Made by a program: the position numbers and the translations under genes. DNA of 64,000 bases, from IMG/VR virus record IMGVR_UViG_3300021399_004696; one strand, written 5' to 3'. The stretch comes from an uncultured virus (IMG/VR IMGVR_UViG_3300021399_004696) (Duplodnaviria > Heunggongvirae > Uroviricota > Caudoviricetes). Positions 426 through 16,572 of this stretch are shown here, one piece after another. The stretch's first letter is position 1. Every line of letters starts with the position of its first letter. The notes under the pieces are model-generated. The model was not told where the DNA came from. It was given only the letters and a program-made list of their open reading frames with translations, and searched no databases.

Positions 426-492
426 ATATGAAGAATCTTGGCAAATCTGAAGTTGTACTTTGGATCAGTCAAATATACTGGAGAATGTTGAA

Positions 493-792
493 ATGAAAAA
501 ACTGCTGATCTTAGCTACTATGCTGTTTATGGTACTTGCTACTTTACTGGGCATTTGGTGCTATCGTGAATATAGGGCTGAGGAGAATGCCAAGGGCATT
601 TGCATCAGTTATCGTGATCTTGATGTAGGGAGTACGTACGGGTTAGATGTTACATTCTATTCAGACGAAGAGCAGGTCGTAGGAACAGGGTATGTAGAAT
701 TTCAGCCTGAGACAAAAGATTCATCTTGTTGCTTGATAGACTGCGATGTTCCTGAAGGAGCCACACACGCATCTTTCAATATAGTAGAGTAA
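493..792 (+). CDS. membrane-anchored hypothetical protein inside the tRNA array
   Basis: MKK followed by a hydrophobic N-terminal segment. Confidence 0.6.
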   Translation: MKKLLILATMLFMVLATLLGIWCYREYRAEENAKGICISYRDLDVGSTYGLDVTFYSDEEQVVGTGYVEFQPETKDSSCCLIDCDVPEGATHASFNIVE

Positions 793-808
793 ATAGGTTT
801 TATAATAT

Positions 809-882
809 TGCGAGGAGGGTCTGGTTCCCAAGAAGCTCTCATAAGGCTTCCTATCCGAGTTCAAGTCTCGGCTTCGCAACCA
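809..882 (+). tRNA. tRNA with CAT anticodon (Met or Ile2), atypical D-arm
   Basis: TGCGAGG/CTTCGCA stem, GAAGCT-CTCATAA-GGCTTC anticodon arm, GTTCAAGTC T-loop, CCA. Confidence 0.75.
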
Positions 883-887
883 CATAC

Positions 888-978
888 GACGGGGTGGCGG
901 AGTCCGGTCTAACGCGCCGGTCTTGAAAACCGGAGGCCTCGCAAGGGTCCGTGGGTTCGAATCCCACCCCCGTCGCCA
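888..978 (+). tRNA. tRNA-Ser(TGA)
   Basis: GACGGGG/CCCCGTC stem, CCGGT-CTTGAAA-ACCGG, long variable arm, G73, CCA. Confidence 0.95.
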
Positions 979-982
979 TTAT

Positions 983-1058
983 GCTTCCATAGCTCAGTAG
1001 GCAGAGTGCATCCATGGTAAGGATGAGGTCGTCGGTTCGATCCCGACTGGAAGCTCCA
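983..1058 (+). tRNA. tRNA-Thr(GGT)
   Basis: GCTTCCA/TGGAAGC stem, CATCC-ATGGTAA-GGATG, CCA. Confidence 0.93.
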
Positions 1059-1063
1059 ATTAT

Positions 1064-1138
1064 AGCCCGATCGTATAACGGCTAGTATAGCGGTCTCTGG
1101 AACCGCGGATGAAGGTTCGATTCCTTCTCGGGCTGCCA
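1064..1138 (+). tRNA. tRNA-Gln(CTG)
   Basis: AGCCCGA/TCGGGCT stem, GCGGT-CTCTGGA-ACCGC, CCA. Confidence 0.9.
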
Positions 1139-1150
1139 AACTTTTACTAT

Positions 1151-1241
1151 GCCGTGGTACCTTAGTGGGGAGGAGGCGCGGTTTCGAAAACCGTCGGTCG
1201 TGAATAACGATCTGTGAGTTCAAATCTCACCCACGGCGCCA
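1151..1241 (+). tRNA. tRNA-Ser(CGA)
   Basis: GCCGTGG/CCACGGC stem, GCGGT-TTCGAAA-ACCGT, long variable arm, CCA. Confidence 0.88.
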
Positions 1242-1274
1242 GGAATATGAAAGACTATTTAATTGTATAGAAAT

Positions 1275-1363
1275 GTCGTCATGGGGTAATGGTAGCCCAA
1301 GAGCCTGCTAAGCTCTCCAACCCATTACGGGTTGTCCGAGTTCGAGTCTCGGTGGCGACGCCA
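1275..1363 (+). tRNA. tRNA-Ser(GCT)
   Basis: GTCGTCA/TGGCGAC stem, AGAGC-CTGCTAA-GCTCT, long variable arm, CCA. Confidence 0.9.
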
Positions 1364-1369
1364 GATCTG

Positions 1370-1398
1370 AAAGCACTCTCTTCGGAGGGTGTTTTTGT
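1370..1398 (+). terminator. intrinsic terminator after the tRNA array
   Basis: AAAGCACTCTC-TTCG-GAGGGTGTTT hairpin with T-run. Confidence 0.8.
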
Positions 1399-1430
1399 TA
1401 TGTTGCAAAGAAAAAGCGGTGGTCGTAATG

Positions 1431-1461
1431 CCGGGCTTTTTTAGGAGCTGCTGAGTAATAT
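1431..1461 (+). promoter_or_regulatory. CCGGG-N20 promoter
   Basis: CCGGG 1431, TAATAT 1456. Confidence 0.7.
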
Positions 1462-1493
1462 GAAGACATAATACAGAAAAAGGAGTGTTTATC

Positions 1494-2231
1494 ATGCACA
1501 ATTTTAAGAAAGTTATCGGAATGTCGGTTTTAGCAAGTATTTTGCTTATGGGCTGCAGTGCAACCGAACCTACAGCTTCATTGGCGCCAACAGACTCTTC
1601 TGCTGGGGTAGAAGGGACAGCAATCGAGACAAGCGCAGTAGCAGAGACTACAGGGGTAGAGAACGTATCTGACTTGTCAGGTTATACCTTAGATGAAGGG
1701 TTTATGCCGTTCAGCTCAATTACTATTAACGGGACTGAGTACGCGTTCCCTGCAGCTTACAGCACGCTGGCAGAAGTTTTTCCTCTTAACGCCGAAATTA
1801 TGGGTGAATTTGCTCCTAACGGGTTGTACCCCGGAATGGAAGTAGCGTCTTATGTAACGTCTGATGACGGAGCAACACCGATCTATCCCGGTATTACGAT
1901 CTCTGTCGGAAATTATTATCAGGATATGTCCGGCGGCGACACTATCGCTATAGAGGATGGTCTGGTAAGGCATATTATCATTAATACGTGGGGAGACGAG
2001 GGTACCGATTTCGAGATCATCATTCCAGGCGGCGGAAGCTTGGGCATGTCAGTTGATGAGATCGTAGAGCTTTACGGCGAGCCTTCTGAGGATAATATCC
2101 ACGATTACGAAGAGGGCGGTTGTGTATATTGTTATCCCGTATATTCCGAAGCTGACGAGAATCGTGCGATTTTTACTACTTTTACGTTCTTGAACGATCA
2201 GGTCGTAGGCATTGATCTTGAGTGGGTTTAA
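1494..2231 (+). CDS. lipoprotein, paralog of 5360..6064
   Basis: Lipobox LLMGC; shares PGGGxLGMS..EIVxLYGE and VVGIDLEW with 5360..6064. Confidence 0.75.
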   Translation: MHNFKKVIGMSVLASILLMGCSATEPTASLAPTDSSAGVEGTAIETSAVAETTGVENVSDLSGYTLDEGFMPFSSITINGTEYAFPAAYSTLAEVFPLNAEIMGEFAPNGLYPGMEVASYVTSDDGATPIYPGITISVGNYYQDMSGGDTIAIEDGLVRHIIINTWGDEGTDFEIIIPGGGSLGMSVDEIVELYGEPSEDNIHDYEEGGCVYCYPVYSEADENRAIFTTFTFLNDQVVGIDLEWV

Positions 2232-3465
2232 CATTCAGATACCGACCACTGTTCGAAGTGCTATGACGGCGTTAAAGAAGCAGGGGTATCAGGTATACGT
2301 GGTAGGTGGTGCAGTCAGGGATTGCGTTTTAGGTAAAGAGCCCCATGACTGGGACCTTGCTACTAATGCTGAGCCCGAACTTGTTAAAGAATGTTTTTCT
2401 AAAACCATTGACACAGGGTTAAAGCATGGTACGGTTACAGCGGTTATTGACGAATCACTTATTGAGATCACTACCTTCAGGACTGAAGGTAAATATTCAG
2501 ACGGCAGACATCCTGATTATGTTCGTTTTGTCGGAGATATTAAAGACGATCTGTTCAGGAGAGATTTTACTATCAACGCAATGGCTATTGATTATCAAGG
2601 GCGAATTGTCGACCCGTACGGAGGTCTGACCGACATTGAAGCAAAAAGGATTCGTTGTGTAGGCAATCCTCACGATCGATTTAGGGAAGATGCGCTTCGT
2701 ATGTTGAGAGCGCTAAGATTTGAGTCGACTTTGGGCTTTTCTCTTGACGATTCGGTAAAGGCAGCGATCAAACAGGATTTATCGCTTCTCAGTGCTACCG
2801 TATCTAAGGAAAGAGTCAGGGAAGAGCTTTGTAAGATGATCAAGGCTCCTAAGGCTTCGACCGGGTATAAAGATGCTGCCGAGCTTGGCGTGTTAAGCGA
2901 AATACATCCGATACTGGGGCGTTTGAGCAGCAATAGCCCGTGCCTGAAATATTTGGATGAAGCTCCCGAGGATCTTCAGATCCGTTGGGCAATACTTTTA
3001 CAAGAGCTTTGTTTTGCATATTCGGCTAAGGACGTACTGGCCTGCCTGCGTTTTTCATATGAAGATATGCACGGAGTTTGTGAATATATAAAATATTGCG
3101 ATTGTGTTGACATGTCTCTAAAAGAGGCCCGAAGATTTGCAGCTGACCACAACAAAGATTTTCTGCGCGGGCTGGCAGTCACACAAAGAGCTCACGGGCT
3201 TGTAACTACCCCCGGATATTGCAGTCAGGCTGTCGCAAAAGCTTGGGCGGCGATAAAAGACCACACAGCCATTAAGATGAAAGACCTGCTCATTGACGGG
3301 AATGACCTGATACAAATGGGTTATCAGGGCAAAGAAGTAGGGGATATGCTGAAGGATCTGTATGACGATTGTCTTGAAGAGCCTTCACACAATGAAAGAG
3401 AGTATCTGCTTTCTGTCGCAGAGGCGTGCCGTAAAAGGCCGGCAGAGCCTGACAGAACTTTATAA
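2212..3465 (+). CDS. cca: class II tRNA nucleotidyltransferase (CCA-adding enzyme family)
   Basis: VGGAVRD, DWDLAT, RRDFTINAM, DPYGG, EDALRMLRALRF motifs; start uncertain; ends in DRTL. Confidence 0.9.
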   Translation: MILSGFNIQIPTTVRSAMTALKKQGYQVYVVGGAVRDCVLGKEPHDWDLATNAEPELVKECFSKTIDTGLKHGTVTAVIDESLIEITTFRTEGKYSDGRHPDYVRFVGDIKDDLFRRDFTINAMAIDYQGRIVDPYGGLTDIEAKRIRCVGNPHDRFREDALRMLRALRFESTLGFSLDDSVKAAIKQDLSLLSATVSKERVREELCKMIKAPKASTGYKDAAELGVLSEIHPILGRLSSNSPCLKYLDEAPEDLQIRWAILLQELCFAYSAKDVLACLRFSYEDMHGVCEYIKYCDCVDMSLKEARRFAADHNKDFLRGLAVTQRAHGLVTTPGYCSQAVAKAWAAIKDHTAIKMKDLLIDGNDLIQMGYQGKEVGDMLKDLYDDCLEEPSHNEREYLLSVAEACRKRPAEPDRTL

Positions 3466-3574
3466 GATCGCAATCAAGCGACCTTTTTACCATGATCTCG
3501 TGTACCATGTGTACAAGGAGTTTTCGAAGACGTTCGGAGTAATCCGGGCGTCTTTTGTTGTTTTGTTTACTATT

Positions 3575-3605
3575 CCGGGCTATTTGTTTTGTTTATCAGT
3601 ACAGT
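3575..3605 (+). promoter_or_regulatory. CCGGG-N20 promoter
   Basis: CCGGG 3575, TACAGT 3600. Confidence 0.65.
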
Positions 3606-3638
3606 TAACTGTAAATAAAGATACAAGGAGGGGCAATC

Positions 3639-4292
3639 GTGCTTCGGCTACCCGATTTCAGCTACAATATTTTTGAACAGACGTTTGATCAGTTTAAATC
3701 GACGGTGAAAGATAAGTATCAGGAAGAGTTTGATCGTTGGCTGGGCCTCCGACGTGATATAACGGAGTATATCGTCTTTTTTATTGTCAGCATCATAATA
3801 CTTCTGCCGATGCTTGCTTTATTTGCTCTTATCAATCATTTTGTCCTGGGCGTGCTTGCTGTTGTCGGGTGTGTATTAGGGGTATGCATTAGTTGGAAGG
3901 TAATGCTTTATGCAGAACGCCGGTTGAAGACAACAGTGGAATGCATCAAAAACGAGTTTTCCTGGTTTTCTTCTGTAGGATACTGGACAGACGTATCTGC
4001 AGATAAGATCTTTAGTTGGATGACAGGTAAAAAAGATCCGGAGCAGTTCAGAAATTATCTTAATAAGGCCCAATCAGAGTTAACAGTAATTGAAAAATTG
4101 AAGGATTGTCCTTGTAACAAATATTATCAGGGTGGAGCAGTAATTGTAGATCAGAGGGTCCTTTTTGAAAACGCGCCTTTGTTAATGAATGTTAACAGTT
4201 CAGATAAGGTCTACGAATGTTCAGCGGAGTATAGCCGTGCGATGAACTATATGAAGGAATATATAACAAACATAAGTTTGTTAGCGAGTTAA
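3639..4292 (+). CDS. membrane protein (two TM segments)
   Basis: GTG start after AGGAGG; two hydrophobic helices. Confidence 0.65.
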   Translation: MLRLPDFSYNIFEQTFDQFKSTVKDKYQEEFDRWLGLRRDITEYIVFFIVSIIILLPMLALFALINHFVLGVLAVVGCVLGVCISWKVMLYAERRLKTTVECIKNEFSWFSSVGYWTDVSADKIFSWMTGKKDPEQFRNYLNKAQSELTVIEKLKDCPCNKYYQGGAVIVDQRVLFENAPLLMNVNSSDKVYECSAEYSRAMNYMKEYITNISLLAS

Positions 4293-4318
4293 AAAGAAAA
4301 CAGCGGGTGGCAGGGATT

Positions 4319-4750
4319 ATGAAAAAGATAAAAGATGAAGAGTTGATTGATTGGTTTCGCGATAACTATATCTGCAATCACGAGATTCCGGAAGAACTTC
4401 GATCTAACATTGAAGAGCTGGTGGTCAGATTTTGTATCACACAAGATGTTCTTGCAGATCAGCGTGAAATGATGGAGGAGATGAAGAGCGAGCATTATAA
4501 AGATGCAGAACTTGCCAGGGTAGGGAAGGAGAATCGCAGATTGCGAGAAGAAACCCGTAACAACTTTGGCATATCTGATGTTCAGAAGAAAGAGATCGAA
4601 GACTGGGTTGAAAAACATGCAAAGGAGTGCCCCGATAAGGAGGGGAAATTTTTGACCTATCAGCTTACTCCGATCGGCCCGCACGTATGCTGTTTTGTAA
4701 AAGTCATCTGTTCTTGCGGAGCCAGACATCAGATCGCTCACATAAAGTAA
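4319..4750 (+). CDS. hypothetical protein with C-terminal CxC
   Basis: ORF with a coiled-coil segment and TPIG...CSCG ending. Confidence 0.65.
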   Translation: MKKIKDEELIDWFRDNYICNHEIPEELRSNIEELVVRFCITQDVLADQREMMEEMKSEHYKDAELARVGKENRRLREETRNNFGISDVQKKEIEDWVEKHAKECPDKEGKFLTYQLTPIGPHVCCFVKVICSCGARHQIAHIK

Positions 4751-4800
4751 CACAGGGTTTTGTATAATACCGGGCTTTTGAAAGACTCAGCGATTATAAT
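4747..4800 (+). promoter_or_regulatory. GTAACAC box plus CCGGG-N20-TATAAT promoter upstream of tRNA-fMet
   Basis: GTAACAC 4747, CCGGG 4770, TATAAT 4795; tRNA starts at 4813. Confidence 0.8.
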
Positions 4801-4812
4801 AGTAATAGACAC

Positions 4813-4889
4813 CGCGGAGAGGTGCTAATGGTGGCATTCCGGGCTCATAACCCGCGAGGTTGCAGGTTCGAATCCTGCCTCCGCAACCA
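4813..4889 (+). tRNA. initiator tRNA-fMet(CAT)
   Basis: C1:A72 mismatch, GGG/CCC anticodon stem with CTCATAA loop, GGTTCGAATCC, CCA. Confidence 0.9.
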
Positions 4890-4890
4890 A

Positions 4891-5108
4891 GTGCTTTGTA
4901 CGGAAGGTTTCGTCACCCGTACATAAAAACCTGAGGACAAGGTCTTAAGTAAAACGAAACTGCTTAAGAATATTGTGGGGCTGATCGTCCAGGTGTGGCC
5001 TATTCTCCGAGGAGATATAAAGCCCGTGCTTACATTCCGCCACATCCTTATAAGACTTCGTACTGATTTTCCCCACCTCTAGCAGGACAGTGCGAAGTCT
5101 TATTTTTG
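4891..5108 (+). ncRNA. candidate structured RNA downstream of tRNA-fMet
   Basis: Four hairpins, loop-loop complementarity GTTTCGT/ACGAAAC, terminal 16-bp hairpin with T-run. Confidence 0.45.
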
Positions 5109-5119
5109 TTTATTGATTA

Positions 5120-5150
5120 CCGGGAGTTTTGAAAATTTTTGTGCTTTAGT
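5120..5150 (+). promoter_or_regulatory. CCGGG-N20 promoter (weak -10)
   Basis: CCGGG 5120, TTTAGT 5145. Confidence 0.5.
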
Positions 5151-5156
5151 AAAGGT

Positions 5157-5363
5157 ATGAGTATAGATTGGCGAAATGTCAAGTTGTCAAGCGCGGATTA
5201 TGGCAGGCTTCGTTCATCCTTGGGGAAGCCAGATGAATCGGCGCTTCAAATAAGAGATAAAGTGATGGCTGAATTTGATGCTAACGTTACGACTGTAAGC
5301 AGGGAAGACGGAAGTATTGAATTAACTGTTACAGATGATTATATAGGAGGTTTTAGTAAGTGA
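5157..5363 (+). CDS. hypothetical protein, possibly leaderless
   Basis: ATG 6 nt after the -10 box; stop overlaps the next start. Confidence 0.55.
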   Translation: MSIDWRNVKLSSADYGRLRSSLGKPDESALQIRDKVMAEFDANVTTVSREDGSIELTVTDDYIGGFSK

Positions 5364-6064
5364 AAAAGGAAATTGCGTGTTTGCTGGCTTTCAGTGTTAT
5401 TTTCGGTATCGCAGCTTGCAGTAAGGATACGGAAGAGACGACAGGAGCGCCCGAGATCGTTACCGGCTATGAGGCAATCGAGGAAAGTGAAACAACGGCT
5501 ACGGAGTTAGAATCTTTGCCGACTTCTCCCTATTTAGATCTGATGGACAGTGAACAGCTTACCTATAACGGGGAACTTTACAGTATCCCCGCACCTTATC
5601 AGGCACTTCAGGATCTGCTTCCTTTAAGTGATGCGGATGCAGCAAGTTTTTTAACTTCAGAATTGAATGTAAATGAAGAATATATGATAACAGTTTTGTC
5701 TGATCACGATCCTGAAGAGTATCCGATGGTCATGTTTACTGTAGGCAACTATACTGCCGGTACACTTGACGAAGGGCCTGTTGCTTTTATGGATGCACCT
5801 GTAAGGCATTTGGTTATAGAGCAGGGCGGTGTTGAAGCAACGGATTTTGATTTTCAGGCGCCCGGTGGCGGAGCTCTCGGCATGAGTTCTGACGAGATAG
5901 TCATGCTTTACGGTGAAGTTGACGGGGAAAATTATGTAGAGTTTGAAAACGGCGGATATCAGTATACGTATTGTACGTATTCAACAGATGGAATCCACGC
6001 CGTTTATAAGACATTCAGTTTTTATAACGACGTAGTAGTCGGGATCGATCTGGAGTGGTGCTAA
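5360..6064 (+). CDS. lipoprotein, paralog of 1494..2231
   Basis: Lipobox IAAC; shared C-terminal domain ending VVGIDLEWC. Confidence 0.75.
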   Translation: MKKEIACLLAFSVIFGIAACSKDTEETTGAPEIVTGYEAIEESETTATELESLPTSPYLDLMDSEQLTYNGELYSIPAPYQALQDLLPLSDADAASFLTSELNVNEEYMITVLSDHDPEEYPMVMFTVGNYTAGTLDEGPVAFMDAPVRHLVIEQGGVEATDFDFQAPGGGALGMSSDEIVMLYGEVDGENYVEFENGGYQYTYCTYSTDGIHAVYKTFSFYNDVVVGIDLEWC

Positions 6065-6370
6065 ATGAATAAGACAGTCACAGTAAAAGCAATAAAAGAC
6101 GATGATAAGATAGAGCCGGCAACCCCTTGGATCTATTTACACGGTGCAATAGAAAAGGAGAACGGTTTTGATCTGGTATACATACCCGATAAGCCCGATA
6201 AAGACGGTGTGTATGAGGCTAACATCTTAGTAAACGATGACAGCGTCGCAGGTGTACTGTTCTACTGGAAAGCCGGAAAGATAGATCGCGGGCTTGTGGT
6301 AAAGAAGGGGGACAAAGAGTTTTTAAACGATGCTTTGGCAAAGTTTAATAAGAGAACACCATATCTATAA
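6065..6370 (+). CDS. hypothetical protein
   Basis: Abuts both neighbours. Confidence 0.65.
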   Translation: MNKTVTVKAIKDDDKIEPATPWIYLHGAIEKENGFDLVYIPDKPDKDGVYEANILVNDDSVAGVLFYWKAGKIDRGLVVKKGDKEFLNDALAKFNKRTPYL

Positions 6371-6385
6371 GTGGGAGGAAGGCAT

Positions 6386-6985
6386 ATGAGCTATTATTAT
6401 TCTTATTATCTTGGATATAAAGACAATAAAGGGAAAATCATACCTCTGGGGCCTTATGATAACGAAGGCAAATTGAAGGCTGTGATCGAAAGATCCCGTA
6501 GCTTTGCATCGGATCTTCATGAGGACTTCAGAGAAGTTCAGAGAAAAGAGGTTTCAGAGCAGTTCAGAAAAGAGTTTGAATATACTGACTGGGACGGGAA
6601 GAAAACCCTTGCTATGGTTGGGGTTTTACCCGTAAAGGAGCTGCCTTCCGGCAGTTATATCAAGAAGGGGTACTTTTTGATATCTGATGTTCAGGCTTAC
6701 GAAAAGGACCATGATACTTGGGATCTTTTTTATGATCGCTTGACTCCCGAAGTGTATGCGCAGATGGTTCAAAACGAACTTACTTTCGGGCCTCCTAAGA
6801 AAGAAGTAGATTGTGAAGGCGAAGATATCACGCCTCACAGCGCCAGGGATTATATGTATTATGCGTATCCCGATTATAGCAGCAGAGAATATGAAGCGTC
6901 TTTTATACGTGATGTGGCATATTTGTATTTGGATTACAGCAAGGTCAACGAAGACAACCTTTATGTCATAAAGACAGAGGGGTAA
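6386..6985 (+). CDS. hypothetical protein
   Basis: GGAGGAAGG SD, 199-aa ORF. Confidence 0.7.
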   Translation: MSYYYSYYLGYKDNKGKIIPLGPYDNEGKLKAVIERSRSFASDLHEDFREVQRKEVSEQFRKEFEYTDWDGKKTLAMVGVLPVKELPSGSYIKKGYFLISDVQAYEKDHDTWDLFYDRLTPEVYAQMVQNELTFGPPKKEVDCEGEDITPHSARDYMYYAYPDYSSREYEASFIRDVAYLYLDYSKVNEDNLYVIKTEG

Positions 6986-7015
6986 AAAATAAGAACAACG
7001 TCGAAAGGAGAAACA

Positions 7016-7195
7016 ATGAAGAAAGCAGACGTTAACACAATGTACACTAAAGAGGAAAAGATCGGTATTGTAAGGGAGTATTTGATGTCGGATACCAGCC
7101 TTGGCGAGTTGTCCAGAAATTATAATATCCCCAAGAATACGATCCTTAGCTGGGTTACTAAGTTTAGGGCTTTCGTTAAGACAGAAAACGCTTAA
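7016..7195 (+). CDS. small helix-turn-helix protein (not in the ORF track)
   Basis: AAGGAG SD; MKKADVNTMYTKEEKIGIVREYLMSDTSLGELSRNYNIPKNTILSWVTKF resembles a transposase-type HTH. Confidence 0.65.
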   Translation: MKKADVNTMYTKEEKIGIVREYLMSDTSLGELSRNYNIPKNTILSWVTKFRAFVKTENA

Positions 7196-7225
7196 AAATC
7201 CGGCTTATAAACAGAAAGGAGCAAC

Positions 7226-7723
7226 ATGCGCAACCCTAACGTTAATAAATATAACAAGGGGCTTTATTCAGTAAGGACATTAAAGCCTGATGCAGATCCT
7301 GTTTGTTTGCCAAACGCAAAGACAGACTATTTAAAGATGAGTAAAAAGCGCAGGGCTCAACTGGAAAGTCAAAAGAGGCGATTTGGATTTACTGATACCG
7401 AAACGTGGGAGCTGGATTATACAGCTTCCGTTTGGCTCTATTCCCATATCAAGATGATGCTCGATATCGGCGGTAAGATCGTTAATTATGAGTGGGAGGG
7501 CGGATGGTCAGATGATCTGAGAAAAGATCTTCAGGATGTAGGGGTTGATACAGAGATATATCATAATGACAAACTTGTGTTCGGTTATATATGTGAACTT
7601 TTGGAAAAGGCTGATAAAATGTTCGCCACATCTGCAGATATACAGGAGGATGTAACGGCAACAGAACTTCGTGTAAAAGCCTTCAAAATTTTTGCAGTAA
7701 TGTTGCCGAGGGCTTGGTGGTAA
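7226..7723 (+). CDS. hypothetical protein
   Basis: AAGGAG SD; RFGFTDTETWELD...WW ending seen in phage orphans. Confidence 0.7.
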   Translation: MRNPNVNKYNKGLYSVRTLKPDADPVCLPNAKTDYLKMSKKRRAQLESQKRRFGFTDTETWELDYTASVWLYSHIKMMLDIGGKIVNYEWEGGWSDDLRKDLQDVGVDTEIYHNDKLVFGYICELLEKADKMFATSADIQEDVTATELRVKAFKIFAVMLPRAWW

Positions 7724-7779
7724 TATTGCCCTGAAAGAAGGGTAGATGTTATTATAAAAACACAGAAAAGGAGCAGATT

Positions 7780-8769
7780 ATGTACAGATCAATAGACTTA
7801 TTTGCGGGTATTGGCGGTATCCGCAAAGGTTTTGATAATGCTTTTGGGAAAGACATCAAAACCGTTTTTGTCAGTGAATGGGATGAACACGCCCAGAAAA
7901 CATATAAACTGAACTATCAAGATGACTTTGATATAGCAGGGGATATAACCAAGATCTCAGCAGACGAAGTCCCTGAGTTTGATATCTGTCTGGCCGGATT
8001 TCCATGTCAGGCGTTCTCGATGGCGGGGTCGCATATGGGGTTCAACGATAATTTTAAAGGCATGACCCGAGGTACCTTATTCAGGGAAGTTGTCCGGATA
8101 TGTGAACAACACAAGCCGAAAGTGATCTTTTGTGAGAACGTTAAGGGGCTGGTACACCACGATAAGGGCAGAACATTCAAAGTTATCAAAGGAGCTTTTG
8201 AAGAGATAGGTTATACCCTTTTTTGTAAGATCCTGAACAGCAAGGATTTTGGGGTGCCTCAGAACCGTGAGCGTATATACATGGTCGCGTTTAGAAACGA
8301 TCTGGGCATAAATGATTTTCATTTCCCTGAAGGTAGCCATAAAAATGTTTGTATCAGAGATATCCTTGAAGAGGCTCCGATCGACCCGAAGTATTATCTG
8401 TCTGATGTATATGTGGAAACATTGAAAAAGCATCGCGCAAGACATGAGGCTGCCGGACATGGTTTCGGGTATGTTATCCGCGATCTTGATGATATTGCCG
8501 GAACGATTGTTTGTGGTGGTATGGGTCGTGAAGGTAATCTTATCATAGACCATCGTGAACATAGCATGATTCCTACAACGCACATCAAAGGCGAGATCAA
8601 TAAAGAAGATATCAGGAAGATGACACCGAGAGAATGGGCCAGACTTCAGGGTTTTCCTGACGATTTTAAGATCGAACTTGCAGATACTCACATGTATAAG
8701 CAGTTTGGTAACAGCGTAACGGTCAATGTTATCGAGGCCATAGCAAAAGAGATAAAGAAAGTCTTATGA
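7780..8769 (+). CDS. C5-cytosine DNA methyltransferase, M.HpaII-like (predicted CCGG)
   Basis: FAGIGG, GFPCQ, ENV, QNRER, YKQFGNSV; variable region HGFGY...GGMGRE...PTTHIKGEIN...RKMTPREWARLQGFP resembles M.HpaII as recalled. Confidence 0.9.
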   Translation: MYRSIDLFAGIGGIRKGFDNAFGKDIKTVFVSEWDEHAQKTYKLNYQDDFDIAGDITKISADEVPEFDICLAGFPCQAFSMAGSHMGFNDNFKGMTRGTLFREVVRICEQHKPKVIFCENVKGLVHHDKGRTFKVIKGAFEEIGYTLFCKILNSKDFGVPQNRERIYMVAFRNDLGINDFHFPEGSHKNVCIRDILEEAPIDPKYYLSDVYVETLKKHRARHEAAGHGFGYVIRDLDDIAGTIVCGGMGREGNLIIDHREHSMIPTTHIKGEINKEDIRKMTPREWARLQGFPDDFKIELADTHMYKQFGNSVTVNVIEAIAKEIKKVL

Positions 8770-10037
8770 ACTGGAGATTAAACAAAGGCGATTGGGCGGA
8801 AGCCTACGTGTTCTGTAAGCTTTTAGCTGACGGGCGTATATATGCGGGTGACAAGGATCTGCAAAAGATCGCTGATGTTTATATGGACATAATCAAAGTT
8901 ATAAGAAAAAATGCGGGCAAAGATGCGGAATACCTGCGTCAGGCCCGCTATGTCGTGGCCTCCGAAGACGGCGTTGATTTTGTAACAGTTGCTTTAGATG
9001 AGTTTGAAAACGCCACGCAAAATCTCAAAGTCCGTATCACCGAAGGTGGGCAGAGCAGAGCTTTTGATATCCCTGAAGCCCAGGATTTTCTTTCTAATAA
9101 ATTACATATTAATAATATAAAAGAGAAGTGCGTTGCTGACGCGTCTGATGATAAGACAGACATCTTGGTAGAAGTTTTGAACAGTACGGACGGCAGCAGG
9201 GAGAAGGTCGGATTTTCCATAAAATCCCATTTCGGAAGTCCTGCTACGTTGTTTAATTGTTCTCAGGCGTCTAAGCTGGTGTATAAGATAAACGGGTGCG
9301 ACGAACATACAATGTACTTGCTCAACAGCATGAAAAACTCAGCGGGAGGGGCCGATGTGGACGCCAGAGTGCAATACATAGCCCAAAGCCCTTCTTTATC
9401 TTTAGAATTTCTCGGAAGTAAGATCATAAAGAATCAGTTTTACGGTGATCAGAAAGAGACTGGCGAGTTCTTCAGATGGAATCTGGAGCATTATGACGGG
9501 CGTATGCTCGATGTTTTCAGTTCCATGCTTTTATCAAGTTATGGGTATTACGGCGAACGGTCCGGCTCGTCTATGAACGAAGTGGTTGAAGCCGTAGCAA
9601 GCAGAAATCCGCTTCAGGTGCATAACCCCCGTTCAGTATATGAAGCAAAGTTTAAGGACTTCCTTTATAATGCTTTTGCGGGATTGACCGCATCTAAGAA
9701 GTGGAACGGGGTCCGTAAGATAAACGGCGGTTATATAGATGTTAAAAAAGACGGAGAGATCCTTTATTACAGGGCTGTCTCAGATGACCAGTTTACATCA
9801 TATCTTTTTAACAGCGTCCGTTTAGAACGTCCTGAACACGGGTGCATCTGTAAATTGAAGATCGCAGAGGCCGAGCAAAAACTTTCAGGTATTCCTATTC
9901 CGGCGACAGTTTTAGAGGAAGCTTCCAGGAGTGCCAGAAAGAAAGGCGATTACGGGTATGTCTATAAAGATACCGAATGGTATGACGGGAATCCGTATTG
10001 TATAGACCTTAATTATTCCTTCCGTTTCAAAAAGTGA
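8766..10037 (+). CDS. HpaII-family type II restriction endonuclease
   Basis: N-terminal NKGDWAEAY..KLL.DG.IYAGD, KTDI...GFSIKS...TLFN motifs; 4-nt overlap with the MTase gene. Confidence 0.8.
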   Translation: MNWRLNKGDWAEAYVFCKLLADGRIYAGDKDLQKIADVYMDIIKVIRKNAGKDAEYLRQARYVVASEDGVDFVTVALDEFENATQNLKVRITEGGQSRAFDIPEAQDFLSNKLHINNIKEKCVADASDDKTDILVEVLNSTDGSREKVGFSIKSHFGSPATLFNCSQASKLVYKINGCDEHTMYLLNSMKNSAGGADVDARVQYIAQSPSLSLEFLGSKIIKNQFYGDQKETGEFFRWNLEHYDGRMLDVFSSMLLSSYGYYGERSGSSMNEVVEAVASRNPLQVHNPRSVYEAKFKDFLYNAFAGLTASKKWNGVRKINGGYIDVKKDGEILYYRAVSDDQFTSYLFNSVRLERPEHGCICKLKIAEAEQKLSGIPIPATVLEEASRSARKKGDYGYVYKDTEWYDGNPYCIDLNYSFRFKK

Positions 10038-10148
10038 ATTATTAGTGAATTATATTTAGTAAAAAGCTAAATATCAATAACGTTTTATTGTAATTTTTAT
10101 GCCCCGGTGCTATTATCCGGATAAGAAAAAGCAAAGGGGAAATTGCTT

Positions 10149-10541
10149 ATGAAACAGGAGCCGGAGGGTAGCTACATCGATAATGATAATATCGGTGAAG
10201 TGATAAGACAACTAAGGCAGGAGAGAGGCCTCAGCATACAGGAATTGGCTTCCTTGACAGAGTATTCATATAATTACATAAACGGTATCGAGACCGGGCG
10301 TTATCAGCGGATCTCACTAAAATGCCTCAAACGGATTGCTACGGCACTCGGCGTGGAATATGTTGAACTTTTATCTCCCGAACCGTCTGCAGCGGAAGCT
10401 CCCGAACAGCTAACGACATTAACCTTGACTCAAGTGTTAGCCTTGCTTACATCCTTAAATGATCTGGATCTTCAGATCGTTATCCAGAAAGTAAGAGAAC
10501 TTCAGACTCTCCGAAAAAGAGAACGAGAGAACGGGCAATAA
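10149..10541 (+). CDS. XRE-family HTH regulator
   Basis: IRQLRQERGLSIQELA...IETG...SLKCLKRIATALGV. Confidence 0.85.
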   Translation: MKQEPEGSYIDNDNIGEVIRQLRQERGLSIQELASLTEYSYNYINGIETGRYQRISLKCLKRIATALGVEYVELLSPEPSAAEAPEQLTTLTLTQVLALLTSLNDLDLQIVIQKVRELQTLRKRERENGQ

Positions 10542-10616
10542 CATAACTGATGTACCAAAAAAGCCTCAAAACCCGATAAAAAAGAACAAAGCTCTAAACA
10601 AATATTCGAAAAACCG

Positions 10617-10935
10617 TGGCGTAAAAATGGCGTAAAGTACAAACGTTCTGTTTTGTAAACGCTTTATTTGCAGGCGTTTCCAGCTCCGCTTTTTATTTTA
10701 TGAACATTATGAACAAAGAACAAATGTTCTATTCTTGATGATCTTCGGCGGGTCTTTATAATTTGTTATTGGCCGATGTATCTTGGTATTTCTTTATTTT
10801 GCAAGGATTTAGAGTTTTTAGAACAATTTTGCCAAAAGTCCGTAAATTACCATATTTTATTATACTTTCACGGGTAGATGGCGTAAAAATGGCGTAAAAG
10901 TTATCTACATTCTTATTAACATTATTTTGGCGTAA
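10617..10935. repeat. integrase arm-type direct repeats (attP-like region)
   Basis: TGGCGTAAAAATGGCGTAAA at 10617 and 10879, TGGCGTAA at 10928, in non-coding DNA beside the integrase 3' end. Confidence 0.65.
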
Positions 10936-11146
10936 TTTTTCGAGGTCACAGCAAAAAGCCATTTTTGAAAAAAGTGAAACAATTGTCCTTGCTGCGTTTA
11001 TGGCAGATCTTTGCTGAATATCTGTTCAGTATATTACGTTCTTAGCCGAATAATGTTCATAAATTTGTTTCTCACAAAATTTTCCGCAAAAATAAGGCCG
11101 GAGATCTCCGACCTTACGGGCAAAATTTTTCGTTTCTTCTGATGCG

Positions 11147-12358
11147 TTACGACAGCTTTCTTCTTTTCTTTGCGGGCAGGGGTTCCGCTCCGAACAGGTT
11201 CATTGCGTCAAAGAGGTCCTTGTCATCGACATGGACATACAGATCCATCGTAACCGCGAGGGAGGAGTGACCGAGGATCTTTTGGAGAACTTTCGGTTCA
11301 ACGCCTTTCTTGATCGCTCTGGTAGCAAAAGTGTGTCTCAGATCGTGCAAGCTCAACCTGTCTATCCCCGGGATATCTTTGATTATATTTTTCAGCACGC
11401 TGTTATATGAGGCACTGGTTGCGGGGGCTTTCCCATCATTTCTTACAAATAGCAGCGAGTCGCCCTTAAAAGTAACTTTACCTCTGTTATAGTCCAGATA
11501 TGTGAAAGTTTCTTGACTGAGAGGGCCGTCCTGCATATACCTTGATAAACGCTCATCAGAGATCTTTTTAGCTATCTCGTACGCCCTTTGAGTCATCGGT
11601 ACGACACGATTGCCGGCGGGCGTTTTAGGGCCGTTTACGACCCATTTCTTGCACGCCGTATCATAATACAGATTTTTATTGACACGGATCGTTCGGTTAT
11701 ACAGATCGACATCCGCGAAGGTCAGTCCGCGAAGCTCGCTTATACGAAGCCCCGTATCGAGCAGGAATATAAAATGTTCATAGTAGTTACTATATACAGC
11801 CAACTCTTCAAACATTTTCTGCTGGGATTCATTCATATATCTTACCTTAAGCGGATTAGTCCTCAGAGCTGTAGGGAGGTACAGGTTAGCAGCGGGGTCA
11901 CTCTGGATCACGCCGTTTGAACGCGCAGCTTCAAACATCATCCGCCCCGTAGTCAGGATACCTGACACGGTACCGGACGAGAGACGCTCTGCGCACTGTT
12001 TAAGGATCTGCTGCAAGTGGATCGGTTTTACATCTTCCATCTGCATATCTCCGATCGCGTCGTGATAATAATTCTTATAGCGGGAGCGGTGCTGATTTAT
12101 CGTTTGGGGGCGTCTTCCGTAAAGGTGGTATTCCACCCAACGGTCAAACCACTCATCGACGGTCATGGCAGTAAAGGAACCTTTTCGGAACTCCGATTCT
12201 TTCTGAGCATCATAGAGCCATCGGGCAGCTTCGGGAAGGGAACTGAAGTACTTACTGATCCTCTTACCGTACGGAACGACCAAGCGGGCGCAGTACCGGC
12301 CGTCTTTTCTTTGAGACAGCCCGGGGCCGAGTTCCTTTCCTTTAAGATTCTTTCCCAT
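11147..12358 (-). CDS. int: tyrosine recombinase / integrase
   Basis: TGLRISE, KT, HDLRHTFAT, LGHS and Y catalytic motifs; N-terminal arm-binding domain. Confidence 0.95.
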   Translation of the reverse strand: MGKNLKGKELGPGLSQRKDGRYCARLVVPYGKRISKYFSSLPEAARWLYDAQKESEFRKGSFTAMTVDEWFDRWVEYHLYGRRPQTINQHRSRYKNYYHDAIGDMQMEDVKPIHLQQILKQCAERLSSGTVSGILTTGRMMFEAARSNGVIQSDPAANLYLPTALRTNPLKVRYMNESQQKMFEELAVYSNYYEHFIFLLDTGLRISELRGLTFADVDLYNRTIRVNKNLYYDTACKKWVVNGPKTPAGNRVVPMTQRAYEIAKKISDERLSRYMQDGPLSQETFTYLDYNRGKVTFKGDSLLFVRNDGKAPATSASYNSVLKNIIKDIPGIDRLSLHDLRHTFATRAIKKGVEPKVLQKILGHSSLAVTMDLYVHVDDKDLFDAMNLFGAEPLPAKKRRKLS

Positions 12359-12457: not shown

Positions 12458-12661
12458 TCAGATAACCAGGTGCTTACTTATAAAGGCTTCGAACTCTTTC
12501 CTCTTAACGAGCTTTTTCGTTCCGACGAACAGGACGAAGGGGCAGTTCGGGGCCCTCAGCATATCGTTCAGTTTGTTGATCCCTATATTACTGTACAGGG
12601 AAGCCTCTTTAATAGTCAGAGTCAGCTTCTGCGGGATCGGTATAATCTCGGTAGCCATCAA
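12458..12661 (-). CDS. xis: excisionase-like protein
   Basis: KLTLTIKEASLYSNIGINKL...VGTKKLVKRKEFE, directly upstream of int. Confidence 0.8.
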   Translation of the reverse strand: MMATEIIPIPQKLTLTIKEASLYSNIGINKLNDMLRAPNCPFVLFVGTKKLVKRKEFEAFISKHLVI

Positions 12662-12905
12662 GCGTATACCTCCTTAGCGTTTTCCACCAGGATATACCAT
12701 CTCCGAACAAAACACCCGGTATTTGAGACATGTATGATAATTCGGATGATATACCGAAACAGAATGGTTTGCAATCGAAATAATTTTAAGGTTTTTGAGC
12801 AAAATTTTAGCAAAAGCATAGTGAAAAAATAATGTAAAAACAGTGAAAATTCACTACTGTCTTTACGGTCTCTCAAAGCTTCTTCCTTTCCAACATCTTT
12901 CATCA

Positions 12906-12949
12906 GTAACACGTGATTCCGGGCGTTAGCGGTTCTTTATAACTAATAT
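12906..12949 (+). promoter_or_regulatory. GTAACAC box plus CCGGG-N20 promoter
   Basis: GTAACAC 12906, CCGGG 12919, TAATAT 12944. Confidence 0.75.
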
Positions 12950-13003: not shown

Positions 13004-13774
13004 ATGGGACAGAGACTTGTTATTACACCCTATGCGGAAGAAGATTTTGCAACACCGATCTGTAAGATGTATTTTCACTGGTCGGCATACACGGCATCAG
13101 CGATCTATACGGCATCAGAAGTGCTCTCGTATTTTTACGGCGATACCAAAGGCAATCTGGTAACTTTTGCGAAGAGGCATACGGCATTCGACAGCAGGGA
13201 TTATAACCCCGATAACGGTGCGTGGGTCCCTCAGTATATAGATAAGACATTAAAGCCTCTTTTTGATAAAGACGGTAATATCGACTTTTCTCAGATCCCC
13301 GATTATACGCTCAGGCTCATAAGGATATGTGAATATCTGGGTGGCGGTATCCGCGGCGGTAAGCCTATTGAAGAAAGTGACGATCCCGAGATATGCGAGT
13401 GGGATTTTATCAATAAGAAGTATCCTAACGAGTTCTTTAAGCCCTATATGATGGACAGGAACGACGGACTTATCGCCGTATCCGAAGAGGGTATGGGCAG
13501 CTTCGATCAATGGAGCGAGGGCGATATGGATATAAGACTGACTGAAGATCCTTCAGAATGTCTGGTCTATAATTCCGTTTTCTTTAATGAAGGTACAGAA
13601 GAAGAGCAGGTAAGGGAGTTTAATGAGCTTGAGGATGACGAAAAGATCGAGGAATTCGACCTTGATCTTAACGAGCCTATTCCTTATAAGGATCTTGCTA
13701 AAGTTGCTGAGAAGCTTGAAGAAGCGCCCGGACTTTTTAAGTGTAACGGTTCGTACTATTCGCTTATCGCATAA
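13004..13774 (+). CDS. hypothetical acidic protein
   Basis: GGAGGT SD; MGQRL...YFHWSAYT N-terminus. Confidence 0.75.
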   Translation: MGQRLVITPYAEEDFATPICKMYFHWSAYTASAIYTASEVLSYFYGDTKGNLVTFAKRHTAFDSRDYNPDNGAWVPQYIDKTLKPLFDKDGNIDFSQIPDYTLRLIRICEYLGGGIRGGKPIEESDDPEICEWDFINKKYPNEFFKPYMMDRNDGLIAVSEEGMGSFDQWSEGDMDIRLTEDPSECLVYNSVFFNEGTEEEQVREFNELEDDEKIEEFDLDLNEPIPYKDLAKVAEKLEEAPGLFKCNGSYYSLIA

Positions 13775-13818
13775 AAGGTTTCAGGAATAAAAGAACAGGA
13801 CAGGAGTTTAACAAAAGC

Positions 13819-16572
13819 ATGATTTGTATCTTAACGGAGAAATTTTCGGCAGCCCAGAACTTTGCTAAAGCTTTCGGCGGCATGGAAGGTATTTATAAAG
13901 GCAGCAAGTATAAGATAGTCCATTCGGTCGGGCACCTTTTCAAGTATCCCGACCCGCAGGACATGCTCAAGAACAGAGCTTTGGCCAAGAGGTATGAGAC
14001 ATGGTCTCTTGAATACCTGCCTTGGGATGAGAATGACTTTACGTGGAAGCGCCAGCTTTGTGCCGATAAGAAGGATGTCTTTGATGAGATAGCCTCGGCA
14101 GTAGATGAATGTGACGAGGTCATAATCGCAACTGATGACGATCCTTCCGGTGAAGGTGACCTTATCGGCTGGGAGATCCTTGACGCGATCGGGGTCGACG
14201 ATAAGGAAGTTACGCGTATGCGTTTCGTTGACGAGTCTCCCGCGAGCATTTTAAAAGCATTTGACCGCAGAGACGGCGTTGTTTCCATGAGATCCAGTAA
14301 GCATTATCAGAAGGCTGAGTTCAGGACGCGTTGGGATTATATGTCGATGCAACTTACCAGAGGCGCTACGATCTGCGGTGGTGGTGTTATTCGTCTTCGC
14401 GAAGGCCGTCTCAAGACCTATATGGTCAGAAAGGTCGGCGATCAGTATAAGCTCATTGATGAGTATAAAGAGATCCCGTTCTATGAAAATCGTTTCCGTG
14501 ATGACCACGGCATCGTATATATCAACAAGGACGCCGAACGCTACGAGAAGCCCGAGCAGGTTCCGCAAAACCTTCACGCTTCGGAGGTCGTGCTTGATAA
14601 GACGGAGCGCAAACACTCGTCCCCGCCTAAGCTTTTGGACCTTTCAGCTCTGTCGGCTTTCTGCGAGGAGAAAGGGTTTAAGGCGTCTTTGGTTCTGGAC
14701 ACATATCAGAAGATGTATAATGACCAGATCGTATCGTATCCCCGTACAGAAGATAAGACTATCACGCATGAACAGTTTAACGAGCTCCTGCCTCTGGCTA
14801 ACAAGATAGCCGCCGTGGTCGGAGTCGATCCTGCTATATTGACTCACAGGGCGCCGAGGCCGACGCACGTTAAGAACACAGGTTCGCACGGAGCTAACAG
14901 ACCGGGGCCTGTTGTACCCGCATCTAAAGAAGAACTCAAGGGTAAGTACGAGCACGGTGCGGTCGCAGCTCTTATCTATGAGATCGTAGCAAGAAATTTC
15001 CTGGCCCTTCTTGCAGAGGATTATGAGTACGATAAGCAGACAGGACATATCAAGGATTTTCCCGAGTATATCGGTTCCTGTAATATCCCCGTCAAGCCCG
15101 GATTCAAAGCTATATTCAGTCTGAAGGATGATAAGGACAAAGATACCGAAAACAAAGAGGGGCTTGGTACTAAGGCGGAGCCGTTTGTACATGAAGGATT
15201 CCCTCCGAAGCCTCAGGTACCTACGTGGAAGTGGCTTCAGAAAGATCTGGAGAAGAATGATATCGGTACAGGTGCCACAAGGACAAGTACGTATGCCGAC
15301 GTGACTAATGACGAGTCTAAAAAGGGTAAGAAATTCCCGCTTCTTAAGTCCGAAAAGGGTAAGATAACCATGACCGACTACGGTAAGATGAGCTATGTCA
15401 TCTGCCAGAATACTCATATAAGCGAGCTTGATCTGACTAAGAAGGTTCAGAATCAGATGCAGGCCGTCTTTGAGGGCAACGGTGATGCCAAAGCGTTCAT
15501 TCATGACATTCAGACTCTTGTTAAAGAGGATATCGCGACTATGGCCGAGAACGGTAGGAGCGATGCTTTTAAGGCTGTATGTGTTGCAGGCCCTGAGTTT
15601 GTGGAAGGTAACTGGAACGGAGCGCCCGTTAAGTTCAGGAGAACTTATGACGGATACCGCTTTACCGATGAAGAGTGCGACATGCTTCTTCGTGGCGGTG
15701 AGATAACCATCAAGGTTGTAAAGTCCAAGCACGAGTCGTATATGTGCAAAGGAAAGCTCGAACGTCAGACATGGACTGACAAGAAGACAGGGGAGACCAA
15801 AGAGGGCGTAGGCTTTACCCGTTTAGCATATGTTGATGATCCTACCGTATATTGCCGTGGTGTCTGGAACGGCGAGAACGTACGGTTCCGTCGTGATATG
15901 AAGGGACATTACTTTACTGACGAAGAGTGTGAGCAGCTTCTTAACGGTGAGACTATTACTATTGAAGTCAAGAAGAGCAAGACGGATTCTTATACCTGTG
16001 AAGGCAAGCTTGCCCATCTTACATATGAGAAGGACGGCAAGACGATCGAGTATGTCGGTTTCTCTAAGACCAGCATCCCCATTGATACGGATAAGTATTG
16101 TGTAGGAATGTGGAACGGCGAAGAGATCAAGTTTAAGAGGGTCTGGAAAGACTATTCATTCAGTGAAGAGGAGTGCAGAAAACTCCTTGCCGGCGAAAAG
16201 ATAACTATTTCCGGACAGTATAAGGGTAAAGACTTCACGGCCACAGGCGAACTCCGTCGTCAGGTTTTTGAGAAGAAGGAAGGCAAGAAGGTAACGCAGA
16301 TACCGTTTATCGGGTTCTATGACCTTAACGGCCCTACTGACGATGATTATTATCACGGCACATGGAAGGGCAAGCCTATGAAGTTTAAGAAGAAGTGGTC
16401 CACATATGAATTCAGTCCCGAAGAGGCCGAGAAACTTTTTGCGGGCGAGAGCATTACGATCACTGCCATGAAGAAAGACGGTTCGGGAACTTATACTGCC
16501 GAAGGTTCGCTTCAGAATTATACATATAACGGCCGGAAGCAGTTCGGGTTCCAGCTCAATAAGCGTTCGTAA
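13819..16572 (+). CDS. topB: type IA DNA topoisomerase (TopB-like) with four C-terminal repeats
   Basis: TOPRIM (ILTEK, ATDDDPSGEG), active-site SYPRT, IGTGATR; repeats GxWxG..FxR...FxxEExxxLxxGExITI. Confidence 0.9.
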   Translation: MICILTEKFSAAQNFAKAFGGMEGIYKGSKYKIVHSVGHLFKYPDPQDMLKNRALAKRYETWSLEYLPWDENDFTWKRQLCADKKDVFDEIASAVDECDEVIIATDDDPSGEGDLIGWEILDAIGVDDKEVTRMRFVDESPASILKAFDRRDGVVSMRSSKHYQKAEFRTRWDYMSMQLTRGATICGGGVIRLREGRLKTYMVRKVGDQYKLIDEYKEIPFYENRFRDDHGIVYINKDAERYEKPEQVPQNLHASEVVLDKTERKHSSPPKLLDLSALSAFCEEKGFKASLVLDTYQKMYNDQIVSYPRTEDKTITHEQFNELLPLANKIAAVVGVDPAILTHRAPRPTHVKNTGSHGANRPGPVVPASKEELKGKYEHGAVAALIYEIVARNFLALLAEDYEYDKQTGHIKDFPEYIGSCNIPVKPGFKAIFSLKDDKDKDTENKEGLGTKAEPFVHEGFPPKPQVPTWKWLQKDLEKNDIGTGATRTSTYADVTNDESKKGKKFPLLKSEKGKITMTDYGKMSYVICQNTHISELDLTKKVQNQMQAVFEGNGDAKAFIHDIQTLVKEDIATMAENGRSDAFKAVCVAGPEFVEGNWNGAPVKFRRTYDGYRFTDEECDMLLRGGEITIKVVKSKHESYMCKGKLERQTWTDKKTGETKEGVGFTRLAYVDDPTVYCRGVWNGENVRFRRDMKGHYFTDEECEQLLNGETITIEVKKSKTDSYTCEGKLAHLTYEKDGKTIEYVGFSKTSIPIDTDKYCVGMWNGEEIKFKRVWKDYSFSEEECRKLLAGEKITISGQYKGKDFTATGELRRQVFEKKEGKKVTQIPFIGFYDLNGPTDDDYYHGTWKGKPMKFKKKWSTYEFSPEEAEKLFAGESITITAMKKDGSGTYTAEGSLQNYTYNGRKQFGFQLNKRS

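Follow-up and report, generated by a model that had tools for sequence, protein, structure and literature searches.

Does a restriction-modification (RM) system that is carried by a mobile element control the promoters of that element when its target lies within their shared upstream box? This question is raised by a stretch of 64,000 nucleotides (hereafter the window) from an uncultured virus of the Caudoviricetes (IMG/VR record IMGVR_UViG_3300021399_004696), which encodes a C5 cytosine DNA methyltransferase together with an HpaII-family endonuclease and contains a class of promoters with a CCGGG box. HpaII cuts CCGG and M.HpaII makes CmCGG, and CCGG is part of the box. Here we find it rather probable that the gene pair is a resident HpaII-type cassette for defence and self-protection, and that the promoter boxes become methylated merely as a side effect of its presence.

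The CCGGG promoter class

The class consists of CCGGG, a spacer of 20 nt and a TATAAT-like hexamer, and nearly all of its members are found on the + strand. On this strand CCGGG occurs 23 times in intergenic DNA, which makes up 9.2% of the bases, versus 30 times within genes, while the opposite orientation is represented by 4 intergenic and 33 genic sites. Exactly 20 nt downstream of CCGGG, 25 of the 53 + strand sites show a hexamer that agrees with TATAAT in at least 4 of 6 positions, compared to a background rate of 5.4% of positions. Other offsets give between 1 and 13 such matches, and offset 20 on the - strand yields 4 of 37. When k-mers and offsets were scanned without bias from -10-like hexamers, CCGGG at offset 20 emerged as the top signal, with 17 occurrences versus 0.77 expected. 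Three of the 25 candidates (17130, 31574 and 49399) fall within genes, without a start codon in the vicinity, and were therefore dropped as likely chance matches, which leaves 22 promoters (Table 1). Of the 31 gaps of 45 nt or more on the + strand, 19 contain a class promoter, including the gaps in front of tRNA-Met (4770) and of both sigma factor operons. If the hexamer is placed at -12 to -7, the CCGGG box maps to about -37 to -33 and its CCGG to -37 to -34. To judge from this pattern, CCGGG is a genuine promoter box of a sigma-70-type class. Spacing, orientation and intergenic enrichment thus bear out the promoter class that had been described in an earlier, sequence-only reading of the window; the accompanying statement that CCGG is found in all promoters of the class is necessarily true, as CCGGG is what defines the class.

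About one third of the 26 boxes examined form, or directly follow, a strong hairpin with a subsequent run of T's, and at CCGGG boxes a terminator and a promoter are often fused. The idea that CCGGG is merely the 3' arm of terminator hairpins was rejected, since the 20-nt spacing to the -10 hexamer also holds where no hairpin is present. The heptamer GTAACAC occurs 16 times (14 on the + strand) versus 4.7 expected, a count that 0 of 100 shuffles reach. Most of the sites (for example 4747, 12906, 29005, 34209, 47840 and 63006) lie where a gene ends and precede a CCGGG box by 10-25 nt, and the heptamer often provides the 5' arm of the hairpin. In samples X3 and X7 the T run after the box of the tRNA-Met promoter (4775) has one additional T, resulting in a spacing of 21 and not 20 nt.

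The RM cassette: family, distribution and specificity

The methyltransferase matches PF00145 (E 8.2e-99, 331.5 bits) and TIGR00675 (335.4 bits, cutoff 100.65), and the endonuclease matches PF09561, RE_HpaII (E 2.7e-61, 208.3 bits, cutoff 25), over profile positions 1-333 of 359; no NCBIfam model was found for the endonuclease. These matches confirm the earlier identification of a C5 methyltransferase paired with an HpaII-family endonuclease. The stop codon of the first gene and the start codon of the second share the letters ATGA, a 4-nt overlap that is seen directly in the sequence, and both reading frames are intact. In the methyltransferase translation we find DLFAGIGG, GFPCQAFS (with the catalytic PC dipeptide), ENV, QNRER and GNSV, which are conserved motifs of C5 methyltransferases. 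The endonuclease retains all 51 of 51 invariant columns of a 17-sequence family alignment. The exact methyltransferase protein is recorded on four contigs, the longest of 198,822 bp.

Using the endonuclease family alignment we collected 80 loci in species-representative genomes, among them Coprococcus, Eubacterium, Lachnospiraceae, Ruminococcus, Treponema, Prevotella, Bacteroidales, Gastranaerophilales, Flavobacterium and methanogens. Loci with a methyltransferase partner span Bacillota, Bacteroidota, spirochaetes, cyanobacterial relatives and archaea. A homologue of the methyltransferase is present in 74 of the 80 loci, and in 70 it lies directly upstream of the endonuclease gene on the same strand (68 of these are full length, with 38-77% identity). 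In 7 of the 10 remaining loci the endonuclease gene is too near the start of the locus to leave room for a whole methyltransferase gene upstream. Homologues of the other window genes near the pair occur in 0 of the 80 loci, and the single sigma-like match, in one locus, is unrelated. Since no locus carries the window's other genes beside the pair, the cassette would appear to move on its own, and by this comparison of neighbourhoods the RM pair is a self-contained mobile cassette. At the protein level, there are at least 8000 homologues of the methyltransferase, the best 120 of which are 77-82% identical, and 349 homologues of the endonuclease, the closest being a 99% twin and the next one 62% identical.

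A specificity for CCGG is very probable for this pair, on the strength of its family and of the conserved pairing with HpaII-family endonucleases. Among the 68 partner methyltransferases, identity to the window protein amounts to 0.56-0.68 in the variable region (residues 200-280) versus 0.51-0.66 in the catalytic core. The variable region is thus conserved like the core, which suggests that these enzymes have a single specificity in common. For the two proteins, generic names only were obtained from NCBIfam, solved structures, source names, plasmid annotations and the protein atlas.

CCGG is not avoided in the window, which contains 209 sites versus 148.5 (sd 11.3) in dinucleotide shuffles; a Markov estimate gives an observed-to-expected ratio (O/E) of 0.83. 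The promoter boxes account for 22 of these sites, and the other 187 lie outside the boxes. CTAG is nearly absent from the window (1-64000), with 5 sites versus 63.4 expected by the Markov estimate (O/E 0.08). By the same measure CTAG lies far below all other 4-bp palindromes, of which ACGT is the next lowest (0.67), and GATC is slightly enriched (1.20). The fact that CTAG has been purged but CCGG kept fits the long-term residence of a protecting self-methylation, and the long residence of a protecting methyltransferase is consistent with the retention of CCGG.

Variants of the element with 97-99% identity, obtained from three DNA runs of three studies, all keep the RM cassette. In sample X2 the piece 2132-9610, which includes the cassette, shows 56 differences in 7479 nt (0.75%), and neighbouring pieces show 0.7-1.8%. 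In sample X3 the piece 7932-10715 shows 55 differences in 2787 nt (2.0%), with 2.6-3.8% in neighbouring pieces. As its divergence is in step with that of the flanks, the cassette has diverged together with the element. No variant or close relative without the cassette was present among the elements found. Megablast of 40000-64000 against phages gave no match, and no relative was revealed by scanning IMG/VR and GTDB genomes for exact peptides of the 917-aa topoisomerase-like protein, nor by an endonuclease search in IMG/VR. A scan for the promoter pattern gave 0 matches in IMG/VR and one in JGI metagenomes, the latter being a copy of this element with 99.97% identity. When phage records were searched with the sigma factor 2 and topoisomerase-like proteins, distant or bacterial-like matches only were obtained. 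Via the sigma factors 33 loci of distant relatives (35-49% identity) were found, 8 of which were scanned for boxes. In the relatives checked there are no CCGGG promoters, and TTGACA-like boxes or no enriched box are found instead; at this identity the relatives are too distant to test the methylation hypothesis.

Consequences of methylation in the promoter box

We propose that all CCGG sites of the element, including the 22 boxes among the 209 sites of the window, are most probably converted to CmCGG by the methyltransferase, and that the endonuclease would cut CCGG that is unmethylated. As HpaII-type systems are common in the habitat, the cassette would serve in defence, in addiction and in protecting the element itself. 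It would do so beside an attP-like site, an integrase and an excisionase, on an element that probably derives from ruminant-gut Firmicutes and carries tRNAs and nucleotide-metabolism genes of its own, in addition to two sigma-70 family factors. Methylation of the boxes would be automatic, and transcription would then take place on boxes that are essentially always methylated, which would leave methylation no role as a switch. We infer for this locus that the enzymes are active, that methylation is constant and that it plays no regulatory part. If the enzyme is HpaII-like, 5-methylcytosine (5mC) is expected at top-strand position -36 and bottom-strand position -35 of every box. The earlier claim that each promoter would carry 5mC where sigma region 4 binds is therefore right as to the overlap of the motifs, which places the mark at the upstream edge of the region 4 seat, and it is conditional on CCGG specificity.

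Several observations speak against a mere by-product. We estimate that a given 4-bp RM site falls inside a 5-bp invariant promoter box by chance in a few per cent of cases, which makes coincidence an uncomfortable explanation. Promoter cytosine methylation alters transcription in other bacteria (PMC7708080, PMC11662147, PMC12707154). With respect to specificity, the best solved relative of the methyltransferase is M.HhaI (GCGC), which is well aligned for residues 3-196 only; because the alignment is confined to this part, the variable region is not HhaI-like. M.SpyI, which is reported to make CmCNGG (PMC6597129), is 44% identical to the methyltransferase, and its neighbour genes are not of the HpaII type. 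Moreover, CCGG avoidance in RM-bearing loci is mild and non-specific, with an O/E of 0.74 in the pooled flanks (603 kb) compared to 0.88 in controls.

It is conceivable, though unlikely, that the coincidence has been selected while methylation remains without regulatory effect. In this case the CCGG of the boxes (at least 22 per 64 kb) could not be purged, and permanent exposure to HpaII-type endonucleases in the habitat would favour carrying the matching methyltransferase. The endonuclease would then be a weapon against unmethylated kin with the same promoter box. This would be consistent with the wide distribution of HpaII-type cassettes in gut and rumen taxa, with the purging of CTAG and the retention of CCGG, and with the co-divergence of cassette and element. 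A Blautia phage methyltransferase, which is 72% identical and has no HpaII-family gene annotated within 5 kb, resembles the protective orphan expected in this case. However, the 187 CCGG sites outside the boxes already expose the element, so that the boxes add little selection, and no kin elements in which exclusion would show were found. The explanation also overlaps with that of a by-product and differs only in calling the coincidence selected.

The sequence-only reading had gone further and suggested that methylation times or licenses the regulon. Here, 5mC in the box would alter the binding of a sigma factor or an activator, and the methylation state, i.e. hemimethylation after replication or transfer, would time the expression of the genes. 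In its favour, the invariant part of the box is confined to one segment, and this segment includes CCGG (about -37 to -34); moreover, sigma factor 1 has an altered region 4.2 helix, SNERVRQIGAKA, where SigA has TRERIRQIEAKA (alignment to SigA 8x6f_E). In the helix that reads the -35 element the changes are R to N and E to G, and we take the changed arginine to be R584 of sigma-70 (E. coli numbering), a determinant of -35 specificity. Because of this altered helix the CCGGG box may be read by sigma factor 1, our candidate, or with equal likelihood by an activator. The cassette is stably kept in the variants of the element, and the precedents for gene control by cytosine methylation in promoters include a sigma factor gene (PMC7708080, PMC11662147; for CfrBI, PMC12707154).

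A regulatory loop could also involve the RM genes themselves. It had been noted that the RM operon has no CCGGG promoter, which is correct for the 56-nt gap upstream of the pair; however, the class promoter at 5120 heads the gene string to which the pair belongs. Since the string 5139-10037 is packed and the scan revealed no terminator-like + strand site between 5139 and 7725, the pair may be transcribed by read-through from this CCGGG promoter, and feedback would be possible. The SigA-like TTGCCC promoter noted earlier is indeed present directly in front of the pair (Table 1), but it is a candidate only: 21 matches of this kind were found versus 17.7 (sd 3.8) in shuffles, i.e. there is no enrichment. 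A weak hairpin (7726-7745) overlaps its candidate -35 element. Contigs from an RNA library of the sample that may be the source of the window match 5321-5531, 6991-7219, 8102-8268, 8630-8713 and 13733-13995 with 0-2 differences, where carry-over of DNA is possible. These contigs are assembled and uninformative on transcript starts, levels and uncovered parts, and no conclusion on expression was drawn from them.

Taken against these points, an epigenetic regulon is nevertheless quite improbable. Since the intact endonuclease should cut unmethylated CCGG, only transient hemimethylation could act as a signal, and DNA that was replicated or packaged in the presence of the methyltransferase would arrive methylated in a new cell. 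Only 22 of the 209 CCGG sites are in promoter boxes, 187 being elsewhere, and the pair is a generic mobile cassette that occurs in many unrelated genomes and is unlinked to the other window genes in 80 of 80 other loci. On these grounds we do not uphold the suggested timing or licensing of the regulon. That there is no CCGG methylation at all, the methyltransferase having another target or the pair being inactive and the boxes unmodified, is very unlikely: related C5 enzymes do differ in target (M.HhaI; M.SpyI, with CmCNGG reported in PMC6597129) and the endonuclease has no NCBIfam model, but the latter matches PF09561 strongly and retains every invariant residue of the family, the methyltransferase belongs to a conserved partner family with a conserved variable region, and both intact reading frames are kept in the variants.

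Genetic context and relation to known systems

The coordinates of all features are given in Table 1.

Table 1. Promoters, genes and other features of the window
Feature	Coordinates	Strand	Remarks
CCGGG-class promoter	1431-1461	+	Spacing scan
CCGGG-class promoter	3575-3605	+	Second CCGGG at 3544 in terminator-like hairpin
CCGGG-class promoter	4770-4800	+	TATAAT 6/6; precedes tRNA-Met 4813-4889
CCGGG-class promoter	5120-5150	+	Heads gene string 5139-10037, RM pair last
CCGGG-class promoter	12919-12949	+	Spacing scan
CCGGG-class promoter	17955-17985	+	TATAAT 6/6
CCGGG-class promoter	22816-22846	+	Spacing scan
CCGGG-class promoter	29019-29049	+	Box is 3' arm of terminator-like hairpin (z -5.3)
CCGGG-class promoter	33798-33828	+	Box within hairpin (z -6.4)
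CCGGG-class promoter	34222-34252	+	Spacing scan, hairpin scan
CCGGG-class promoter	36394-36424	+	Spacing scan
CCGGG-class promoter	44584-44614	+	Spacing scan
CCGGG-class promoter	46137-46167	+	Spacing scan
CCGGG-class promoter	46806-46836	+	Spacing scan
CCGGG-class promoter	47853-47883	+	Spacing scan
CCGGG-class promoter	50468-50498	+	Spacing scan
CCGGG-class promoter	52077-52107	+	Upstream of 52132-52455 and sigma factor 1
CCGGG-class promoter	53614-53644	+	Spacing scan
CCGGG-class promoter	54968-54998	+	Second CCGG in spacer
CCGGG-class promoter	56666-56696	+	Spacing scan
CCGGG-class promoter	61120-61150	+	Upstream of operon with sigma factor 2
CCGGG-class promoter	63029-63059	+	Box within hairpin (z -3.4)
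Candidate SigA-type promoter of RM pair	7726-7755	+	TTGCCC, 18 nt, TATTAT, upstream TG; 9/12 positions
C5 cytosine DNA methyltransferase	7780-8769	+	329-aa open reading frame (ORF); PF00145/TIGR00675
HpaII-family type IIP restriction endonuclease	8766-10037	+	423-aa ORF; PF09561
Candidate SigA-type promoter of helix-turn-helix (HTH) gene	10088-10120	+	TTGTAA, 17 nt, TATTAT with TG
HTH (Cro/C1-type) regulator	10143-10541	+	PF13560/PF01381; PHROGs repressor/regulator families
attP-like non-coding region (putative)	10542-11146		Perfect 20-nt direct repeat at 10617 and 10879
Tyrosine integrase	11147-12358	-	PF00589, E 4e-25
Tn916-type excisionase	12458-12661	-	PF09035, E 4.3e-28
Sigma-70 family factor 1	52552-53598	+	Regions 1.2 to 4, full length
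Sigma-70 family factor 2	61969-62979	+	Full length; canonical region 4.2 helix TRERVRQIEAKA

Almost all genes of the window are on the + strand. A - strand CCGGG box with a weak -10 hexamer is located at 12715-12719, upstream of the excisionase gene. The putative attP-like region of 600 nt lies between the HTH gene and the integrase gene, and is more diverged between samples than its flanks (37 differences in 695 nt in X2). Contigs of other samples cross 2132-9610, 7932-10715 and 10701-12034 at a depth like that of the rest of the first 20 kb. Based on the gene context and on these contigs crossing the RM and attP region, we take the whole window to be one large phage-like mobile element. In our judgement the element comprises about 199 kb and carries the RM pair in an accessory region by its attachment and integration module; "phage-like" is likewise a judgement, since no capsid or tail gene was recognised in the 64 kb.

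In the candidate HTH gene promoter the -10 hexamer is flanked by CCGG on both sides, 3 nt before it and directly after it, and in other samples variants with one or two extra A's occur at 10125. A role of the HTH gene product as controller protein of the RM pair was rejected, as the gene is absent from 80 of 80 other RM loci. Located 600 nt upstream of the pair, a 59-aa ORF (7016-7195) matches the HTH domain of IS3-type transposases (PF01527, E 3.6e-07) and may be the remnant of an insertion event.

The window contains nine tRNA genes, eight of which are also found by Rfam. It further encodes an enzyme of the CCA-adding/poly(A) polymerase family, the topoisomerase-like protein, NrdD, an exonuclease, a polynucleotide-kinase-like protein, a T4-type RNA ligase, a ThyX-like protein, a RecD2-like helicase and a PARP-domain protein. 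The tRNAs, the CCA-adding-type nucleotidyltransferase, the kinase-like protein and the RNA ligase are found in 251-4889 and 37163-40510, and together look like a set for tRNA supply and repair. The regions 50460-52040 and 55634-60040 encode the PARP-catalytic-domain protein (526 aa) and, further downstream, two more proteins: one is pilin-like and bears a methylation motif at its N-terminus, the other (856 aa) contains a Listeria-Bacteroides repeat.

The gene pair resembles the HpaII RM system in comprising a clear PF09561 member and a C5 methyltransferase partner, with the methyltransferase gene preceding the endonuclease gene on one strand. It differs in its location by an integrase on a large phage-like element, in the 4-nt overlap of the genes and in that specificity and methylated position are deduced. 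Bacillus phage SPO1 encodes phage sigma factors, gp28 and gp33/34, with promoter classes of their own. The present element is similar in that it, too, encodes sigma factors and that its promoters combine a -10 element with a non-canonical upstream box at a fixed distance, whereas its sigma factors are full-length and SigA-like, one of them with a canonical region 4.2.

Promoter methylation by an RM enzyme has a precedent in CfrBI, where the methylated site is in the overlapping promoters of the RM system itself (PMC12707154). The systems share a methyltransferase target within a promoter element, where modification could alter RNA polymerase binding. In contrast, neither the gap before the RM pair nor its candidate SigA-like promoter contains CCGG, and therefore there is no sign of CfrBI-like self-control; the sites are instead found in about 22 promoters of other genes. 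In Leptospira, cytosine methylation of a promoter by LomA alters the expression of an extracytoplasmic function (ECF) sigma factor gene and hence of its regulon (PMC7708080), and in Synechocystis promoter methylation by M.Ssp6803II alters hemJ expression (PMC11662147). In these cases, too, the methyltransferase target lies inside a promoter. LomA and M.Ssp6803II are orphan enzymes that make N4-methylcytosine and act at single decisive promoters of cellular genes, whereas the enzyme described here, known from its sequence, is a 5mC methyltransferase of a complete RM pair whose probable target lies in the shared box of a mobile element's whole promoter class. A complete RM cassette that marks the shared promoter box of a mobile element was not met in a limited full-text literature search, which provides a thin basis for novelty.

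The element itself is the more unusual object: it measures about 199 kb, encodes two sigma factors that resemble SigA and has a promoter class of CCGGG, 20 nt and TATAAT. We give little credence to the further idea that sigma factor 1 or an activator has adapted to read CmCGGG, with the methyltransferase as an obligatory cofactor of some two dozen promoters per 64 kb. If true, fully methylated DNA and hemimethylated DNA, i.e. newly replicated or transferred, would be transcribed differently, and RM cassette, sigma factor and promoter class would form one epigenetic circuit on a mobile element. Should methylation of the box affect transcription, this would be the first case known to us of an RM cassette marking the whole promoter class of a mobile element. 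If methylation is irrelevant, the locus would still illustrate clearly how a phage-like element retains a site that it is unable to purge and carries the matching methyltransferase.

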